Virus record (IMG/VR): IMGVR_UViG_3300032231_000006
Coordinates: 1 to 43,848 of that record
DNA length: 43,848 bases
Reading direction: 5' to 3' (one strand)
Source: a virus
Taxonomy: Duplodnaviria; Caudoviricetes
A program made the position numbers and the translations under genes. Below the pieces are notes generated by a model. It saw only the letters and a list, made by a program, of their open reading frames with translations. It was not told the origin of the DNA and searched no databases. Shown here piece by piece: positions 14,547-29,981 of this stretch. Numbering within the stretch: position 1 is the stretch's first letter; each line of letters begins with the position of its first letter.

Positions 14547-14874
14547 CAGGCCGTTATCCGAAACGCTCAGAGAAGTGTACAACGATATGGTCGAAGCTTA
14601 CGCGGATGCGAGGCTAAACGAGAATGTCGCCGGGCAAGAGCGGATCAGCAAGCACATTTCGAGTTTAACAAAACAAATCAAAGACCAAGAAATCCACGAG
14701 CGGCGAGTGGTGCCTGTCGACGAGGTCTGGAAATACAACGGCATTGTCGGCGACGTTCTGGGTTCGATCCTGAAGCGATTAGAGGGTGAGCCTCTAGACG
14801 CATCCGCTGCGATTATCGAGACACAGGCGCAACTTGAGATAGTGGCCAAATCAGAGTTGGGGGTTGAGCGATAA
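14536..14874 (+). CDS. Possible terminase small subunit (Nu1-like C-terminal part)
   Basis: Helical protein with E.RVVPVDEV motif; the genome has a GpA-type large subunit. Confidence 0.4.
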   Translation: MDHNRPLSETLREVYNDMVEAYADARLNENVAGQERISKHISSLTKQIKDQEIHERRVVPVDEVWKYNGIVGDVLGSILKRLEGEPLDASAAIIETQAQLEIVAKSELGVER

Positions 14875-15230
14875 TGAGCGCAGACGTAGCATACGCTGTA
14901 ACACGACGCAGGGGTGAGGCGGGTTCAATTACTCGCCGGACTGGGGAGGCCTCTGTAGACCCTGAGACGGGTGACGTCGCTGGCGTTACGTCTACGACCA
15001 CCGTGAGGTGGCTCGTGAAAGAACCGACCAAATACTCACGGATTGTGAGGGCGCAAGCTGCTCAACAAGATATCGGACAGACTACGTTTATTTTGTGGTC
15101 GAAGGATGTAACGTTCGCCAAGGTCGACAACGAGGATTTCGTGACATTCGGAGGGATCAATTATCACGTCAAGTCGTCGACGATCGAGAATGGGACTGCT
15201 TTCATTATCACAGCGGACGAGGTGGTCTAG
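14874..15230 (+). CDS. Head-closure / head-tail joining protein
   Basis: 118-aa beta-rich protein: ITRRTG..DPETG, DFVTFGGINYHVKS. Confidence 0.65.
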   Translation: MSADVAYAVTRRRGEAGSITRRTGEASVDPETGDVAGVTSTTTVRWLVKEPTKYSRIVRAQAAQQDIGQTTFILWSKDVTFAKVDNEDFVTFGGINYHVKSSTIENGTAFIITADEVV

Positions 15231-15667
15231 TGGCTCCGAAGGTGAGTGTAAGCGTGGACGTCAGAATTCCATCACCTGACCTCAAGGCTACGAAGCGACT
15301 AATCCACGACCACATGGTTGAATTCACGAGGGAGCAGTTGAAAACGTGGGTCTTGCACACAGTCGACCCTATCCCTGTTTGGTCTGGTGCGGCTCGCGCT
15401 TCTTTCCTTTTTCTGGCTGCTAAGGCTTTTACGTCGTTCAAGATAAACCCGGTCGTGGCGTCTAGAATCACGCTAGGGATCACGGAGGCTAAAGCCGAGG
15501 TGTTCCTTGAGCCAGGGAAGCGTTACGGGTGGGAGTGGGAAAGCGACCTCGAACACATAGGCATAGTGGAGGACCGAGTCGGGTTTGTGAAGGCAGGTTT
15601 CAACTCCATCAGAAATGCAAAAGTGAAGCTACCGCAACCAGCTGTAAAGTCGGTGAAGGGGGAATAA
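15230..15667 (+). CDS. HK97 gp10-like neck / tail completion protein
   Basis: IPVWSGAARASF resembles the TPVDTG.AR.SW motif; GTG overlaps the upstream stop. Confidence 0.6.
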   Translation: MAPKVSVSVDVRIPSPDLKATKRLIHDHMVEFTREQLKTWVLHTVDPIPVWSGAARASFLFLAAKAFTSFKINPVVASRITLGITEAKAEVFLEPGKRYGWEWESDLEHIGIVEDRVGFVKAGFNSIRNAKVKLPQPAVKSVKGE

Positions 15668-17140
15668 GTGGCGACTGAAAAAACGAAAGTTGAGTTCGAC
15701 GTATTGGGGGCTATAACCTCACTCGCGAAGCTGGAGAAGAAGTCAAGAGAGACAGGGAACGAGGTAAAAGGCGCGTTTGAGGCTGGGGGCGAAGGGACGA
15801 AATTTTTCGCGGAGGCGTTGGACGCAGTTGACCCCAAGTTGGCTACGTTCGTAGCCAGCGTGGGCACTGCAGGGGCGGGGGTTGCGCTCGCCGTCGGGTC
15901 TGTAGCCACGTTAGCCGCGAACTTACTAGGCGTCGCGGAATCACTCAGGGACGTTGACGCTACTTTCGAAGGTATCATCGAGCGATCGAAGGACGTGAAA
16001 GAATCACTCCAGTTGCGTGAGAATCTGTCTGGTGCCAAGGATGACTTTGACTTATCACTTCGGAGAGAAGAATTAGCCTTCAAACGCACTGAGCTCACGA
16101 AAACTAAGGCAGCTAACTCGGAGGCACAAAGAAGAGCTGAAGACCAACTAGAATTTGCGAAAGACACATTAGCGAAGGTCGACGAAGCCGAAAAGTCCGC
16201 AGCAAAAAATAGCCGATCAGCTGCCGAGAAGCTGCAAGATTTTCAGGACAAAAAGGTAGGGGACAACCAAGGCAACGCGTCAAAAAACATAGAAGAGGGC
16301 TTGAAAAGAGACGCCGAGCTTGCGGAGCAGAAACAAAAGGCGCTGAAAGGTCAAAAGTCGGAGGCCCAAAACCTCGTTGATGCGATGGAGACGCTTCTCG
16401 AAATTGAGAAGAATCGGGGGGTTGAGATACGTTCTAATTCGAAGCTGTTAGCAGAACAGCAACGTATAGTGTCGTTGGACGCTGGCCAAGGAAGGCAAGA
16501 AGGGAATGCTAGAAAAGCGGAGTTACTGTTTGAAGAGACTCGAAAAAACATCCAAGGGGGTGCGAAAAGCTTCGCCGAGCAAGGGACTCTAGGGAAGCTT
16601 AAAGATAATTTCTCAGCTGGCTTGAGGGGCGTACTAAGTCCTACGTCTCTCGGATCGATCCCCGGCGGTGCGAAAGCTTTGAGTGGTATTGAAAAAGCAT
16701 TTCAGGACGCGGTCATAGAGGTCTTTAGGGATGGAAAAGTTACGACGGGTGAAGTCGAGGGACTTGAGGAGCTCCGCACAAAGTTGAAAGATCAAATCGG
16801 GATCGTAAAAACGAAAATCGGCGAAGGTACAGGGAGTGACACCCTCACCGGACGCGTCGGGAGAATCGAAAAACTCGTTAACGAGCTTGCGGGGTTCACC
16901 AAGGCCGGGACACTCGCCGCAGGAGCTGGCCTAGGCCCGGACCAAGGGATAGCAACCGCGAGCCAATCGGTCCGCCAAAACCAAGCCGCACGAAACGCGG
17001 CCAGAGGCGACACCTCAGCTGCGGTAAATCAGACCATCAATCTAAACGTTGACGTCAAGGGTGGTATCATCGACGCGGACGTCGCGAAACAGATCGGCGA
17101 AATTGCGGCGACGGAGTTCCGAAAAGGGACAGCGAAATAG
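15668..17140 (+). CDS. Probable tape measure protein (short, 490 aa)
   Basis: Ala/Gly/Lys/Glu-rich helical protein, hydrophobic GAGVALAVG patch, C-terminal INLNVDV strand. Confidence 0.65.
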   Translation: MATEKTKVEFDVLGAITSLAKLEKKSRETGNEVKGAFEAGGEGTKFFAEALDAVDPKLATFVASVGTAGAGVALAVGSVATLAANLLGVAESLRDVDATFEGIIERSKDVKESLQLRENLSGAKDDFDLSLRREELAFKRTELTKTKAANSEAQRRAEDQLEFAKDTLAKVDEAEKSAAKNSRSAAEKLQDFQDKKVGDNQGNASKNIEEGLKRDAELAEQKQKALKGQKSEAQNLVDAMETLLEIEKNRGVEIRSNSKLLAEQQRIVSLDAGQGRQEGNARKAELLFEETRKNIQGGAKSFAEQGTLGKLKDNFSAGLRGVLSPTSLGSIPGGAKALSGIEKAFQDAVIEVFRDGKVTTGEVEGLEELRTKLKDQIGIVKTKIGEGTGSDTLTGRVGRIEKLVNELAGFTKAGTLAAGAGLGPDQGIATASQSVRQNQAARNAARGDTSAAVNQTINLNVDVKGGIIDADVAKQIGEIAATEFRKGTAK

Positions 17141-17145
17141 TCTAG

Positions 17146-17174
17146 TTGACACAACCGGAGCCGCCGGATATACT
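17146..17174 (+). promoter_or_regulatory. Near-consensus sigma70 promoter TTGACA-N17-TATACT
   Basis: -35 at 17146-17151 and -10 at 17169-17174, in the intergenic gap upstream of the holin. Confidence 0.8.
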
Positions 17175-17217
17175 GACACAAACCTTCTTTTCGAAACCCC
17201 ACTCAGGAAAAAATCAA

Positions 17218-17436
17218 ATGAGCAGATTTGGAAAAATCCTTCGCGGAACCGCGAAATCGAACACAATGCAATTCAATGGCGGTGCGATTGCATCGATCCT
17301 AGCACTCTTACAGTCGGATGGGGTCAAGGACCTGCTGGCCGCGAATCCGCAGTATTCGGCGTACGTCACAATTGCCGTTCTGGTCATGAACCTGTTTTTA
17401 CGCGCAAAAACCTCGACGCCCCTTTCCGAGCGGTAA
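17218..17436 (+). CDS. Holin-like small membrane protein (72 aa)
   Basis: KS.T.xFN start, two hydrophobic segments, C-terminal LR..T..PL typical of small phage holins. Confidence 0.7.
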   Translation: MSRFGKILRGTAKSNTMQFNGGAIASILALLQSDGVKDLLAANPQYSAYVTIAVLVMNLFLRAKTSTPLSER

Positions 17437-17482
17437 CCAACCACAAGGCTTTGACTCTTTTTCTAAACCACCCGGAGCCGCT

Positions 17483-18205
17483 ATGAATCTTAAAATCATC
17501 ACCCTATGCACAGCGTTCGCCTTGAGTGGATTGACGCATGGTCAACCCTCAGGAGGTCCCGGTGTGTTGGATAAGACTCCTCGGCAGGCCGAGCCAGTGG
17601 AGATCATCGACGTCAAACCAGGAATCGAGCTCAGCGCCCCGCTAACTTGCGAAGTCGGAGAGCTTGTTGAGTTTTCCGCGTTCGCGAGCAACGTCGATTC
17701 ACTCGTGTGGGAGATCATCCCGAAAACACCCGACTTCCGCGTGATGGCTAAATCGCGTGTCGCTTTTTTCAGCGCCCGGCCGTCGAGTAGCGGGGAGTCT
17801 TTCCGGCTTGTGCTTGCAGGCGCGAAAGGCGGGGAGGCTTTCCTCTTTCACCAAGTCATCACAGTGAAGGGTCCGACAGTAGCACCCAGTAAGATGCAAG
17901 CCGCTGTAAACTTGTGGGCGACGTTGGTGCCCAAAGCTGAAAACCGATCTGCGAAGCTTCGGGCTATGGCGGGCGTGTTCCGCCAACTCGCCGAGTCAGA
18001 GATCGAAGTCGATAAAATCCTCGACGCTACGGCTATTGCTAACTCCGCAGTGTTAAATGGCGACCTTGAGGTTTGGATTCCGTTTCTCGACGCAATGGGC
18101 ACAGAGATCGACCGACTCGGCGACGCCGGAGAGCTTGACACGCCGAGCCAGTACCGAAAAACGTGGCGAGAGATCGCCGACGCATTGGACATCCTCGCGT
18201 CATAA
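17483..18205 (+). CDS. Secreted protein: Sec signal, Ig/PKD-like beta domain, helical C-terminus
   Basis: MNLKIITLCTAFALSGLTHG signal; VGELVEFSA..LVW..LVLA..ITV beta-sandwich pattern. Confidence 0.65.
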   Translation: MNLKIITLCTAFALSGLTHGQPSGGPGVLDKTPRQAEPVEIIDVKPGIELSAPLTCEVGELVEFSAFASNVDSLVWEIIPKTPDFRVMAKSRVAFFSARPSSSGESFRLVLAGAKGGEAFLFHQVITVKGPTVAPSKMQAAVNLWATLVPKAENRSAKLRAMAGVFRQLAESEIEVDKILDATAIANSAVLNGDLEVWIPFLDAMGTEIDRLGDAGELDTPSQYRKTWREIADALDILAS

Positions 18206-18220
18206 CCGAAAGAGGGCCTT

Positions 18221-19306
18221 ATGAATAGACGATCCGCCCTTGCATCGCTGATAGGGGGAGCCGCCAGCGTCGCTTCAGCGAATCGATTATGCGGTGCGCC
18301 AAAGTGGGTTTTCAATCCGCACGTACACTACTACGGCGCGGAGCCGCCCATTGTGCGGCGAGCTGACCGAGCTCGGTTCTATCGCGAGTTCTCCGCGTTT
18401 CGAGGCGCAGCTAAAGCCTCAAAAACGAACGTATTCCTCCACCACAATCTGGCACGCGAGCTCGGCGAGATTGCGCCTCACGACCAGACCGGAATATTTG
18501 ATGAGTTCGGGAACCACACGGAAGTTGGTGAAGGCGACTGCTTAGCACATGCGGTTGCGTTAGGGGGCGACATCCTTGCCGCGACGAACATACACGAGCT
18601 CGGCAAACAGGAGAAGTGGCTCGGAAAAACGTCGGTAGAGATGGTGTATGCTGGGTCTCGAATCGAGATCGGCCAGCAATCAGACCCAAAGAAAGTCAAC
18701 AGGCTCGCGGGTCGAGCGGGGTCAAGAGGGGTTTGGGGGGCGAGGTTCGCGAATGAATTTGGATTCCTACATCGCCAGAAATATACACGGAACGGGCATA
18801 CGATTGACCTGACTGGTTACAGCCCCGACCGATCAAGGCTCTACAGAGACGCGGGGGTCCCTGATTGGTTAGAGCCAATCTGCCGTCAACACCCTGTGAA
18901 GTCGATATCTAACGTCCTGTCCGGAGAGGAAGCCCTCGACGCTATTTGTGCTAGGCAGGTGGTCGTACTTTGCTCAAGCTACGCTTTCCACGACACGCGA
19001 GACAGCTTAGGTTTTAGCGATCCGTATCTCGGTGGGCGATGGGGCGGAGGCGGTCGCAAGGAATGGCGCCACGCAATGCTGCTGTCCGGGGCCGTGTTGG
19101 CTGAGACCCGTAGGGGAGGTGTCGTTCACAATTCCCACGGTGTGTGGAACGAAGGACCGCGTCCGTTCGGCCTACCTGAAGGGGCTTTTTGCGTCGACGA
19201 TTACGTGCTCGATTTGATGGTAAAAGACTGGTACGATTGCTACGCGTTGTCACTATACACCGGCGCGAATGCTAAGCGTATTCGCCACAAACTGTATCGA
19301 AGGTAA
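18221..19306 (+). CDS. Papain-like (C1 / clan CA) cysteine peptidase with twin-arginine signal
   Basis: MNRRSAL..ASA signal; Q (HDQ), C (GDCLAHA), H (WRHAM), N (HNSHG.W). Confidence 0.8.
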   Translation: MNRRSALASLIGGAASVASANRLCGAPKWVFNPHVHYYGAEPPIVRRADRARFYREFSAFRGAAKASKTNVFLHHNLARELGEIAPHDQTGIFDEFGNHTEVGEGDCLAHAVALGGDILAATNIHELGKQEKWLGKTSVEMVYAGSRIEIGQQSDPKKVNRLAGRAGSRGVWGARFANEFGFLHRQKYTRNGHTIDLTGYSPDRSRLYRDAGVPDWLEPICRQHPVKSISNVLSGEEALDAICARQVVVLCSSYAFHDTRDSLGFSDPYLGGRWGGGGRKEWRHAMLLSGAVLAETRRGGVVHNSHGVWNEGPRPFGLPEGAFCVDDYVLDLMVKDWYDCYALSLYTGANAKRIRHKLYRR

Positions 19307-19311
19307 ACGAA

Positions 19312-19845
19312 ATGCTGCGATGGAAATTCAAAGATGTTCCGATAATGCTGTGGCTCACTTTGACCCTTGCCGCGTTCGCCGCTTTTACGACGTCGGTTCG
19401 AGGGGCTGACCTGTATGTACAACCGCACAAAGACAGACAGGAAAAAGAGAAACCCCATTCGGATTACCCCTCTCTCCTTCTCGAAGGGCGGGACGAGGGT
19501 GTCATCCTAATCATCGGGTTCGAGGGGTGCGTCCATTGTAAAACCCTCATCGGCGAGATCCCGAAAGACTACCGGGTTTTTTACGTACAGTATAACGAAG
19601 CCGACGAGCTCAATGAGTCCGAGGACCCGCCGAAGTGGGACGAGTTGAGGGTGGAAGCAAAGCTCGATGCGATGTACCCTGCGTGCCTGATCATGGTTAA
19701 AGGCGAAATATCACACTCATTCACCGGGTCGCTCGATTGGGTAAAGTTCCGCGATCACGCGAAGCCCGCAAAGCTCAAAAAGAAAGAGCGTAAACAGATC
19801 CGGAGAAGTTGGATCGACTATTTCAGAGGTGGGTCAACATCTTAG
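19312..19845 (+). CDS. Exported thioredoxin-fold protein (CVHC)
   Basis: N-terminal hydrophobic signal; ILIIGFEGCVHCKTL; YP cis-Pro loop followed by a beta-hairpin and FTG. Confidence 0.75.
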   Translation: MLRWKFKDVPIMLWLTLTLAAFAAFTTSVRGADLYVQPHKDRQEKEKPHSDYPSLLLEGRDEGVILIIGFEGCVHCKTLIGEIPKDYRVFYVQYNEADELNESEDPPKWDELRVEAKLDAMYPACLIMVKGEISHSFTGSLDWVKFRDHAKPAKLKKKERKQIRRSWIDYFRGGSTS

Positions 19846-19850
19846 GGAAA

Positions 19851-21542
19851 ATGCTACACCTGACCGGTGAGGCGATGCTGAACCGAAATTATGACGTATG
19901 CAGCCGATGGGCCCCCGCCCGTCGCGTGATGCAAGACGGCTGTAAGTACTCGATTCCGGACTACCCCTACATCGAAGGGATTCTCGATTCTCGCGCAAAA
20001 AATAACTGGATTATGAAAGGGACGCAAGTCGGTCTCACCGAGGGCGGGATAACGATTGCAACCTTCGAGGCGGATTACCACCACCGCGACGTCATATACT
20101 ATTTCCCAACTAAAAAAATGGCGGAGCGGTTTTCGAAAACACGTTTCTCACCTGCTATCAATCTATCTGAGTACCTAGCAGGGCGGTGCACCAACAACAG
20201 CGTCGAGACTAAGCAATTCGGAAACGCAACGATTCACATTCTCGGTGCTAATTCTTCCGCGGACCTAAAAGGTACGTCGTCCGGTCGGCTCATTTTTGAC
20301 GAGCTCGACGAATGGACCGACCAGCAAATCTACATGGCCGAGGAACGGTCAAGCGGCCAAAAAAACGACGACACAATCATTTGGGGGTTCTCCACGCCGC
20401 TCTACCCGAATAAAGGTATCCACAAACAATATCTGAGATCGACACAAGAACACTTCCGATTCGACTGCCCCAGCTGCAGAGAGCGTATAGAGTTAAGGTG
20501 GCCTGACAGCTTCGAGCTATGTGGGGAACACGAGAGCGACCCCGAACTGAAAAACTCACGGATAATCTGCTATGCGTGTGGAGCGGAGCTTCCGCACGAA
20601 GAGAAGGTACAAGGGCGCAGCTGGCTCGCGACTAGGTCGCAAGGCGGAACGGCCGCGTGGGAGCAGACGAACGGCGGACCAGAGTTGATGAAGCTGAACC
20701 GGGGTTTCTATCTCCCTCAGCTGTATTCGCCAACGGTGGCTCCTTATAAAATCTCACTCAAATTTCTACGGAGCCGAGGGGACGAGGCGGCGAGTAGGAC
20801 TTTCTGGAACGACTGCGCCGGGCTCCCTTACATCACCGACCAGTTCCAGGTGACCGACGCCGACATCGACAAAGCGATCCAAAAGCACGGCCTGTACTCC
20901 ACGAACGACGTCGGACCTTTTGACGTCGATAACTCTTACGTAACGTTAGGAATCGATCAAGGCGGACCCCTACACCATTGGGTTGCTGTCAACTGGGTTT
21001 TCGACGCTGCGAAGCCGGGGGACCCGAACGACAAAGCGTTCGGGAAGCTGGTAGGGTTCGGACAAATACTGCAGGACAATTGGGGGGAATTGGCGGAGTT
21101 GATGCATATCTACTGCGTCCGCATGTGTGTGATTGACGCGGCCCCTCAACCGACGTCTGCCCGGTCGTTCGCGAAGGGATTCGCCGGGGCGGTTTACGCC
21201 AACTACTATAACACGACGCTGTCAACCGGTGGTCGAGACATCCGACTCATCAATGACGAGTACGGCGCGAACGTTTCAAAGACGGACAACGTCGGGTGGA
21301 TGACGAAATCACTCGGCCGGATCATCAATGGGGCGATCAGCTTCCCTACAGATGTTACTATGGAGCTCCGCGATCAGCTGAAGGCGCCCGTCCGCACCAT
21401 GCAAAAAATTCAAGGTCACTACTTCGCCAAATACTTAGATGGCGACTCGGATCACTACGCCCATGCACTTACTTACGCTGAAATTGCGCTGAAAATTCAG
21501 GACCCTGATTTACATACTGACGACGACGAAATACGAGAGTAA
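19851..21542 (+). CDS. Terminase large subunit, lambda GpA family
   Basis: MKGTQVGLTE, LIFDELD, FSTP, CPSC..CYAC, LGIDQG, DHYAHA. Confidence 0.9.
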   Translation: MLHLTGEAMLNRNYDVCSRWAPARRVMQDGCKYSIPDYPYIEGILDSRAKNNWIMKGTQVGLTEGGITIATFEADYHHRDVIYYFPTKKMAERFSKTRFSPAINLSEYLAGRCTNNSVETKQFGNATIHILGANSSADLKGTSSGRLIFDELDEWTDQQIYMAEERSSGQKNDDTIIWGFSTPLYPNKGIHKQYLRSTQEHFRFDCPSCRERIELRWPDSFELCGEHESDPELKNSRIICYACGAELPHEEKVQGRSWLATRSQGGTAAWEQTNGGPELMKLNRGFYLPQLYSPTVAPYKISLKFLRSRGDEAASRTFWNDCAGLPYITDQFQVTDADIDKAIQKHGLYSTNDVGPFDVDNSYVTLGIDQGGPLHHWVAVNWVFDAAKPGDPNDKAFGKLVGFGQILQDNWGELAELMHIYCVRMCVIDAAPQPTSARSFAKGFAGAVYANYYNTTLSTGGRDIRLINDEYGANVSKTDNVGWMTKSLGRIINGAISFPTDVTMELRDQLKAPVRTMQKIQGHYFAKYLDGDSDHYAHALTYAEIALKIQDPDLHTDDDEIRE

Positions 21543-29411: not shown

Positions 29412-29728
29412 TGATAGTGCAAGAACAAATCAATATACCAGGCTTCCATGTCGCGATATACGCCAGCGCAGGCCACGTAGCGTCGGACGTAAAAACGCCG
29501 CCAACGTCCACGATCGGGCCTATCCCTTTAGTGACCTGGGGTCCTCGGCTTGACCTCAAGACGAACGATAAAACATCGGTGGATCTGCACGCTATATTGC
29601 GAGCTTTGAAAAAAGTAGAGGCGCAGGCTGACGCGTACAAGCACGAAGACTCTGAAAGCAAGCGACAAGTTATGAAGCGATCAATAAAAGCGTGCCGGAA
29701 TGCGATTGAGCGGGTGGCAAATGCCTAA
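29411..29728 (+). CDS. Hypothetical protein
   Basis: GTG overlaps the upstream stop; fills the gap between neighbours. Confidence 0.5.
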   Translation: MIVQEQINIPGFHVAIYASAGHVASDVKTPPTSTIGPIPLVTWGPRLDLKTNDKTSVDLHAILRALKKVEAQADAYKHEDSESKRQVMKRSIKACRNAIERVANA

Positions 29729-29981
29729 CGACGAACTACAGCATCTGACGGCGGTGTCGCTAAAGCTGACGAAAATGGATGTAAAACTCGACACCCTCAT
29801 CCGCGACGTGGAGCAGCTGCAGAGTGACCAATATGGTGACGGCAACCATGACGGGATTCGAATCGACGTCGATCGTCTGAAGCGATCTCGGGCCAACCAG
29901 AACGCTGTACTGTGGGTCTTGTTCACCTCGGTGGTGGGGATGGCGGCAGCATTCGCACTTGATTTTCTGAATAAAAACTAG
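29721..29981 (+). CDS. Coiled-coil protein with C-terminal TM helix (XhlA/holin-like)
   Basis: KLDTL..GDGNHDGIRIDVDRL followed by a hydrophobic helix. Confidence 0.6.
   Translation: MPNDELQHLTAVSLKLTKMDVKLDTLIRDVEQLQSDQYGDGNHDGIRIDVDRLKRSRANQNAVLWVLFTSVVGMAAAFALDFLNKN

Follow-up and report, generated by a model that had tools for sequence, protein, structure and literature searches.

The stretch analysed here (the window) is the whole 43,848 nt of IMG/VR record IMGVR_UViG_3300032231_000006, an uncultured sediment phage classed as linear, which codes for PolA, an SNF2 helicase, a primase, a large terminase, portal, scaffold, a P22-type coat protein and tail genes. After a tape-measure-like gene and before the large terminase gene, four plus-strand open reading frames (ORFs) follow in series at 17218-17436 (72 aa), 17483-18205 (240 aa), 18221-19306 (361 aa) and 19312-19845 (177 aa), and no match in Pfam or PHROGs was found for any of the four products. 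An earlier interpretation from the letters alone (the sequence-only reading) had proposed four consecutive envelope-targeted genes at this place; their position was confirmed, with a corrected start for the first. Below, L, G and P numbers denote loci, virus records and proteins of the protease family, respectively. The features of the cassette and its flank are as follows.

17146..17174, plus strand: sigma70-like promoter match TTGACA-17-TATACT, in the gap 3' of the tape-measure-like gene; not conserved
17218..17436, plus strand: 72-aa, weakly holin-like protein with two hydrophobic segments; start moved from 17146
17483..18205, plus strand: 240-aa partner protein with Sec-type signal, PKD-like Ig domain (about 17612-17875, residues 44-131) and helical bundle (about 17891-18199, residues 137-239)
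18221..19306, plus strand: 361-aa papain-fold (C1A-like) cysteine protease with twin-arginine leader; Q89 at 18485, C107 at 18539, H284 at 19070, N304 at 19130
19280..19303, plus strand: C-terminal tail of the protease (residues 354-361, H-x-L-Y), predicted docking peptide for the helical groove of the partner
19312..19845, plus strand: 177-aa thioredoxin-fold protein with N-terminal hydrophobic signal; CVHC at 19528-19539, conserved Pro123
19809..21542, plus strand: large terminase ORF, directly 3' of the cassette; the cassette precedes this gene throughout the clades with twin-arginine translocation (Tat) type proteases

The 361-aa protein is, as judged from its predicted structure, a member of the papain-like C1A fold with an intact catalytic set, and proteolysis is its predicted activity. 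Searches with the single sequence gave no match in IMG/VR, GenBank phages or PDB sequences, and a GTDB search with the alignment of close relatives gave none either. Forty-nine relatives were found at 43-62% identity, and a profile of 38 relatives matches 1154 clusters (50% identity). Q89, C107, H284 and N304 are invariant in all 38 close relatives, and the corresponding Q, C, H and N are kept in 96, 99, 99 and 88 of 99 distant ones. When the AF2 (AlphaFold2) model (pLDDT 87.7) was compared with C1 peptidases and other solved structures by Foldseek, xylellain (3OIS) was the best PDB match (E 9.6e-9, TM 0.49/0.64), followed by papains and cathepsins, in line with the papain-type enzyme proposed earlier; 231 PDB matches were obtained at E<=0.001, and those listed are C1A enzymes. 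The same four catalytic residues align to xylellain in a 99-row profile (E 1.9e-5), at an identity of 13-15% to xylellain and papains. Pfam family PF00112 matched neither the window protease nor any of the 38 close relatives; one distant relative scored 24.7 bits against a cut-off of 20.7. The family has no name in Pfam or PHROGs. For scans of loci the 99-row protease alignment was too divergent, and a 16-row alignment worked.

The protease starts with the leader MNRRSAL, in which the consensus Lys is missing; the twin-arginine motif, a hydrophobic region and an AxA site are present and form a putative Tat-type export signal. In a pattern scan, 36 of 38 close relatives showed the twin-arginine motif, and the Pfam model TAT_signal matched 8 of the 38 at E<=0.1, so that both the twin-arginine leader and the Gln/Cys/His/Asn set of the sequence-only reading held among relatives. 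Among the best 150 distant matches, the Tat pattern is present in 36 and a hydrophobic N-terminus in 15; the other 99, some of them incomplete proteins, show neither of the two. The copies in Gemmataceae mostly have a membrane anchor. The family therefore shows three export states: Tat, no signal, and an N-terminal membrane anchor.

Intein or homing-endonuclease domains were detected in 31 of the 43 long members scanned out of the best 150 distant relatives. Most insertions immediately precede the catalytic Cys or immediately follow the catalytic His, and some proteins carry two. Intein-bearing members (P0077-P0208; loci L027, L030, L032, L045 and L061) include several with Tat leaders. At the 29 relatives' loci where the terminase is visible, six proteases exceed 500 aa and no terminase exceeds 578 aa. 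Inteins favour genes that cannot be lost, and the intein load at the catalytic residues therefore points to a protease gene that the phage may be unable to lose. A precursor that splices first would fit folded export by Tat.

Directly upstream of the protease, the 240-aa partner was modelled (pLDDT 88.2) as a PKD-like beta-sandwich followed by a helical bundle. Together with its Sec-type signal this bears out the signal-peptide Ig-like/helical protein described from the letters, and an N-terminal hydrophobic signal is present on the partner in all clades inspected. The best named match of the beta-sandwich is the PKD domain of the collagenases ColG/ColH (Foldseek E 4.8e-4, TM 0.68). In VIA, the collagenase PKD domain reached Z 8.9 (rmsd 3.2, 80 aligned residues), tied with many Ig folds, so the PKD-like fold itself shows no function, and the top match was a phage tail chain (Z 9.9). 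These fold searches cover chiefly the PKD-like domain and barely the helical one; in the Atlas, no relative of the partner reached >=0.9.

The pair formed by partner and protease is the fixed core of the cassette. With detection profiles built from the same loci, the partner precedes the protease by at most 550 nt in 74 of the 80 loci with enough flank (out of 90 non-redundant loci), namely 51/54 viral or metagenomic and 23/26 cellular ones, and its stop often overlaps the protease start. Prediction of the protease-partner complex gave a score of 0.66, against 0.00 for the best of three controls; of solved pairs 116 of 157 attain the mark for this score, of mismatched pairs 2 of 215, and these counts apply only roughly to our own alignments. 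The runs share at least 81% of contacts, with a partner pLDDT of at least 82. The confident interface comprises the helical domain and the protease tail only, residues 354-361 lying in a groove of partner residues 180-210, and these partner residues are more conserved than the remaining helical domain among 15 close relatives (0.78 vs 0.53). A hydrophobic/aromatic tail motif, 8-14 residues past the last conserved Gly, recurs across the protease family, and a partnerless copy at L116 ends without it. The protease tail is thus predicted to dock on the helical domain of the partner.

Two further partnerless copies, on a Balneolaceae chromosome and in a Mucilaginibacter isolate (L102, L103), have a different C-terminal tail. 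In 20 chromosomal stretches, the helical domain of the partner alone scores in seven (four weakly), both domains in six, the PKD domain alone in one and neither in six. The 161-aa helical proteins upstream of the protease at L180, L189 and L191 resemble the partner by eye and gave no profile score. The partner was also considered as an Ig inhibitor of the chagasin type (I42), in which an NPTTG loop of the Ig domain binds the protease active site; this was rejected, as the motif is missing from the partner alignment and the predicted interface is formed by the helical domain and the protease tail.

The two outer genes of the cassette are optional or mobile. The gene of the small membrane protein adjoins the partner gene in the window, L009 and L016; in L002, L004 and L005 it is placed 2.3-6 kb upstream, past the small terminase gene. 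In the clade of signal-less proteases a different protein with one transmembrane segment (1-TM) takes this position, and the order is tail genes, 1-TM protein, Sec-exported partner, protease, a different small protein with a hydrophobic end directly after the protease, and often an HNH gene; a place after the tail genes is a usual lysis position. The conserved linkage expected for all four genes was accordingly retained for the protease-partner pair and given up for the displaced holin-like gene and the thioredoxin, which is absent from one clade.

The 72-aa protein has two segments of moderate hydrophobicity, a lysis-type position and a family conserved upstream of the partner gene. Its relatives alone gave PHROG holin matches (E 0.025 in 2/6; E 2e-5 in 1/12), and no Pfam holin family matched the protein or its relatives. 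Of the two-segment holin-like protein claimed earlier, the size and the segments stand, the homology to holins is weak and the start was wrong: the 96-aa frame from TTG 17146 was rejected, as the -35 box begins at this TTG and relatives align from ATG 17218. The same reading had given the cassette its own promoter. The TTGACA-17-TATACT match exists (11/12 positions, tied best within 10-30 kb); the pattern also arose in 8 of 100 shuffles, a scan with a looser pattern found none ahead of the same small gene in 19/19 relatives, and the terminase gene follows directly after the thioredoxin gene, so that the case for a separate promoter is weak. A second holin-like candidate, an 86-aa coiled-coil protein with a C-terminal transmembrane segment, is encoded at 29721-29981 of the window, and its relatives come after the capsid gene in L002 and L003.

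The thioredoxin-fold protein shows conserved motif residues: C73, C76 and P123 are invariant in 6/6 aligned rows, and the two inner CxxC residues vary widely across 31 copies. PF00085 did not match the window protein and matched all five aligned relatives, one of them above the cut-off, in line with the signal-peptide CVHC thioredoxin fold noted before. Its distribution was followed on a quick IQ-TREE tree of 81 proteases. In the clade of the window (14 rows, support 100) it is present in 11, the other three contigs ending soon after the protease; it is likewise present in 13/13 rows of a second Tat clade, and it was found in none of the 19 viral rows of the signal-less clade, which groups with the Gemmataceae protease copies. 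A search led by the terminase added four further loci, all with the thioredoxin gene upstream of the terminase, and one of sufficient length for the complete set to be visible. Another count, thioredoxin in 28 of 31, is partly circular, as thioredoxin helped to define that group, and carries no weight here. A strict rule that thioredoxin occurs only with Tat was rejected, as it is found in L038 (signal-less) and in L180, L189 and L191 (membrane-anchored prophage copies). For its role, both reduction of envelope disulfides and upkeep of the catalytic Cys had been suggested; because the signal-less clade manages without thioredoxin, its main job is more likely to keep the Cys of the exported protease reduced than to open wall disulfides, although this putative reducing role reflects few evolutionary events among kin that share traits, and membrane-anchored prophage copies are accompanied by thioredoxin as well.

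In relatives, further small proteins stand near the thioredoxin gene. A DUF1360 membrane protein with CxxC lies beside it in the second Tat clade (L021:3408-3737 and relatives) and could feed electrons. Between thioredoxin and terminase, many relatives encode a small protein with a W-x-x-E-N-W amphipathic end and often a Tat-like leader (L002:8578-8961, L011:1662-2201, L013:2132-2530, L014:1388-1894), possibly serving an outer-membrane step. Neither of these two proteins was found in the window.

Known lysis enzymes were searched for in the window and across relatives. No muramidase, amidase, transglycosylase or spanin matched among 51 window ORFs in Pfam and 50 in PHROGs, in agreement with the sequence-only reading, and no window ORF carries a lipobox; the known peptidoglycan hydrolase and the spanin or lipoprotein of a canonical holin-endolysin-spanin cassette were thus not found in this incomplete genome. 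Eight families, phage lysozyme (PF00959), Amidase_2 (PF01510), M15_4 (PF13539), Amidase_3 (PF01520), SLT (PF01464), M23 (PF01551), M15_3 (PF08291) and PG_binding_1 (PF01471), matched none of 42 related virus records, with positive controls. These were protease-bearing records of which longer ones were chosen; 21 are at least 90% complete and seven have terminal repeats, so the absence of classical endolysins extends to near-complete relatives. GH25 (PF01183) and NlpC/P60 (PF00877) were found in 0 of 5 records, and Pfam scans revealed no peptidoglycan hydrolase among 44 ORFs of G017, 54 of G019, 49 of 151 of G009 (late region) and 144 of 168 of G015. Most of the complete records belong to clades other than that of the window.

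The host of the phage is likely a member of the Planctomycetia, as judged at the level of the protease family. Of 34 GTDB loci, 27 lie in records labelled Planctomycetota. In a Planctomycetia sample around Limnoglobus, relatives of the protease occur in 104 of 401 genomes, which upholds the planctomycete host assumed earlier; a phylum-wide sample, searched with a different profile, gave 6 of 401 genomes, all six also in the class sample. Passages in PMC10632474, PMC8567305 and PMC12673574 describe peptidoglycan genes in Planctomycetia as dispensable or absent and Cys-rich YTV wall proteins as restricted to this class, while a part of PMC12673574 gives peptidoglycan as detected in several planctomycete species.

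Among the 20 chromosomal stretches, eight have a terminase, portal, integrase or resolvase gene nearby (in two of them judged only from the resemblance to genes of their neighbours). A syntenic locus in five Planctomycetia genomes (L180, L181, L189, L190, L191) carries a helical membrane protein, an anchored protease, thioredoxin, terminase and portal, and may be a prophage family or a domesticated element. At L183, L184, L185 and L187 a signal-less protease with a weak, helical-only partner is found near a Ser/Thr kinase and 6-phosphogluconate dehydrogenase, and looks like a resident of the chromosome.

The cassette was compared with known systems. Lambda S-R-Rz/Rz1 is the holin-endolysin-spanin cassette of tailed phages; like such cassettes, the window encodes a hydrolase aimed at the envelope together with an adjacent small membrane protein, in a late operon near the terminase or after tail genes. 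Unlike them, it has a C1A protease with a separate partner (and thioredoxin in some clades), and no peptidoglycan hydrolase family or spanin pair was found. In fOg44, P1 and phage 21, signal-peptide or signal-arrest-release (SAR) endolysins are exported by the host translocase before lysis and the holin acts only as a trigger. The proposed export ahead of lysis is similar, whereas those enzymes use Sec and the window protease is of the Tat type, of another enzyme class, and part of a family with three export states. PeiW and PeiP of methanogen viruses are pseudomurein endoisopeptidases, cysteine peptidases acting on an archaeal non-murein wall, for which no partner or thioredoxin is known. Here, too, a virus would open a non-murein wall by a cysteine peptidase and not by a muramidase; PeiW/PeiP differ in family, domain layout and their pseudomurein substrate. 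With xylellain of Xylella fastidiosa, papain and the cathepsins the phage protease shares the fold and the Gln/Cys/His/Asn register, and it differs from them in its Tat leader, its predicted C-terminal docking tail and its near-obligate upstream partner. The PKD domains of ColG/ColH resemble the beta-sandwich of the partner, which in the phage sits on a separate protein with a helical bundle. In mycobacteriophage Lysin A, as far as described in part of PMC3314691, NlpC/P60-like and C39-like modules (N4, N5) are fused to glycan hydrolase and wall-binding domains; the window protease would likewise be a papain-superfamily cysteine protease in phage lysis, and is a stand-alone, C1A-like enzyme with no such domains. 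In its working the cassette resembles a signal-peptide endolysin cassette, yet it falls outside the canonical cassettes. No description of this cassette was found in the openly accessible literature covered, and it probably represents a mode of phage-induced host lysis that has not been described before.

The explanation that we favour, at a probability of roughly 0.55, is a protease-based phage lysis cassette in which the papain-fold protease replaces the endolysin; it is drawn from sequence and structural models. The late operon would make a Sec-exported partner, a folded protease exported by Tat, and an exported thioredoxin. The protease would dock by its C-terminal tail on the partner, whose PKD domain may hold it on an insoluble wall substrate, while the thioredoxin would bring the catalytic Cys into its reduced state, or keep it there, in an oxidising periplasm. 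Lysis would be timed by the small membrane protein, which would depolarise the membrane here and let the protease out in the signal-less clade. The protease would then cut the protein wall of the likely Planctomycetia host, with Cys-rich YTV-type wall proteins as the candidate substrate suggested by host biology. Linkage, lysins missing from relatives, host group and export signals favour the non-canonical exit system of the sequence-only reading; its four genes did not hold together as one unit, and the lytic role and the substrate are inferred.

Several points weigh against this explanation. All of its support is computational, from sequence and predicted structure. CheckV puts the completeness of the record at 45%, and a 1120-nt contig of about double depth, from a run that is possibly the source of this DNA, extends about 1 kb beyond the right end, so the window is not the whole genome; this contig is possibly a terminal repeat, and a 15-bp tandem repeat at positions 1-140 is probably an assembly break point. 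The 14-row clade of the window has no complete genome (G001-G003: 62, 41 and 39%), and none of its rows is cellular, so for the host and for the lack of lysins the argument relies on the family at large. The 42 records are interrelated and were picked by us, and the result for GH108 (PF05838) and GH19 (PF00182), 0 of 42, came with silent controls. No outer-membrane step was identified in the window, and the small protein is a weak holin candidate whose identity is thin. The higher conservation of the interface disappears in a 68-row deep alignment (0.35 vs 0.35), where the two subfamilies differ. Seven of the 34 GTDB loci lie outside Planctomycetota, and one close relative, on a 1147-nt contig, is labelled Anaerolineae. 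Finally, eight of the 20 chromosomal stretches lie among housekeeping genes, with four unassigned.

A wider form of the same idea is tentative, and we consider it somewhat short of even odds: that Planctomycetia phages lyse a disulfide-rich protein wall with a two-subunit exoprotease and no peptidoglycan hydrolase, with delivery depending on the clade (Tat, holin or membrane anchor), a tail that clips on a pre-exported PKD/helical subunit, a thioredoxin switch, and chromosomal copies acting as a protein-wall autolysin of the host.

Those chromosomal copies are also the main evidence for a non-lytic role, which we regard as unlikely and in which the genes would form a periplasmic remodelling pair of Planctomycetia, carried by phages to alter the host surface (receptor removal, superinfection exclusion or envelope softening) while other genes perform lysis. 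The eight copies among housekeeping genes (6-phosphogluconate dehydrogenase, kinases, chorismate synthase) mean that the pair also works outside phages, and relatives are abundant in Planctomycetia genomes; Limnoglobus roseus has the pair with no prophage context seen, and an enzyme exported by Tat leaves the cytoplasm without a holin. The copies also fit a host autolysin related to the phage enzyme, and host autolysins related to endolysins are the norm. Near-complete genomes show no other lysin candidate, in each of two distinct genome layouts the pair sits in the late operon with membrane proteins next to it, and inteins at the catalytic residues fit an essential gene, all of which speak for lysis instead.

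Less likely still is a lysis cassette in which the protease acts as a peptidoglycan peptidase on stem peptides or cross-links, which would make it an ordinary endolysin of a novel catalytic type. Viral C1A-like models labelled 'Peptidoglycan binding-like' (E 5e-6) and 'N acetylmuramidase' (3e-5) match the fold, papain-family domains occur in mycobacteriophage Lysin A (N4, N5; part of PMC3314691), and peptidoglycan components are mentioned for planctomycetes in part of PMC12673574. On the other hand, a peptidoglycan-binding domain was found in 0 of 42 records and in none of the 43 long relatives scanned, the first structural matches are C1A enzymes that cut proteins and not NlpC/P60, CHAP or C39, and the cellular relatives cluster in Gemmataceae, given in excerpts of the literature as lacking peptidoglycan genes. 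A role in the virion or its assembly, with the protease maturing head or tail proteins or travelling in the particle for wall entry, is improbable: the terminase, portal and capsid genes do come straight after the cassette, virions often bear Ig/PKD domains, the partner's top VIA match is a tail chain and 99 of 150 distant relatives lack a signal by pattern, yet the signals on protease (36/38) and partner would remove both from the cytoplasm where virions are assembled, the signal-less pair follows the tail genes, and copies persist in chromosomes without virion genes.

Some neighbouring features may be added. Upstream of the cassette and terminase, away from the other tail genes, the window carries head-completion-like and short tape-measure-like genes (14874-17140), an order also seen in L016. 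The window terminase used alone as query retrieved no viral locus and only distant cultured phages. No RNA data set was listed among the sequencing runs that contain this DNA. More peptidases occur in related elements (L143:15742-16539, L145:7843-8727, L182:8696-9697), including trypsin-like and M28 peptidases in G015 and, in L182, a signal-bearing trypsin-like protein directly after the protease. G019 encodes a DOT1-like methyltransferase (E 5.6e-17) and a weakly CsrA-like protein (L151:17778-18395, L151:13748-13960).

If the protease-based lysis cassette is real, it would be a bacteriophage lysis route without a peptidoglycan hydrolase, and would provide an example of a lytic enzyme with two subunits that depends on Tat, and of an intein hotspot in an exported protease. 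The family is large (1154 clusters), and its prophage and chromosomal copies in cultured Gemmata and Limnoglobus make it open to experiment. Whether peptidoglycan or Cys-rich protein forms the load-bearing layer of the Planctomycetia envelope is a long-running question (discussed in parts of PMC12673574, PMC10632474 and PMC8567305). A phage must cut the load-bearing layer of its host, and the substrate of this protease would therefore name that layer in Planctomycetia.

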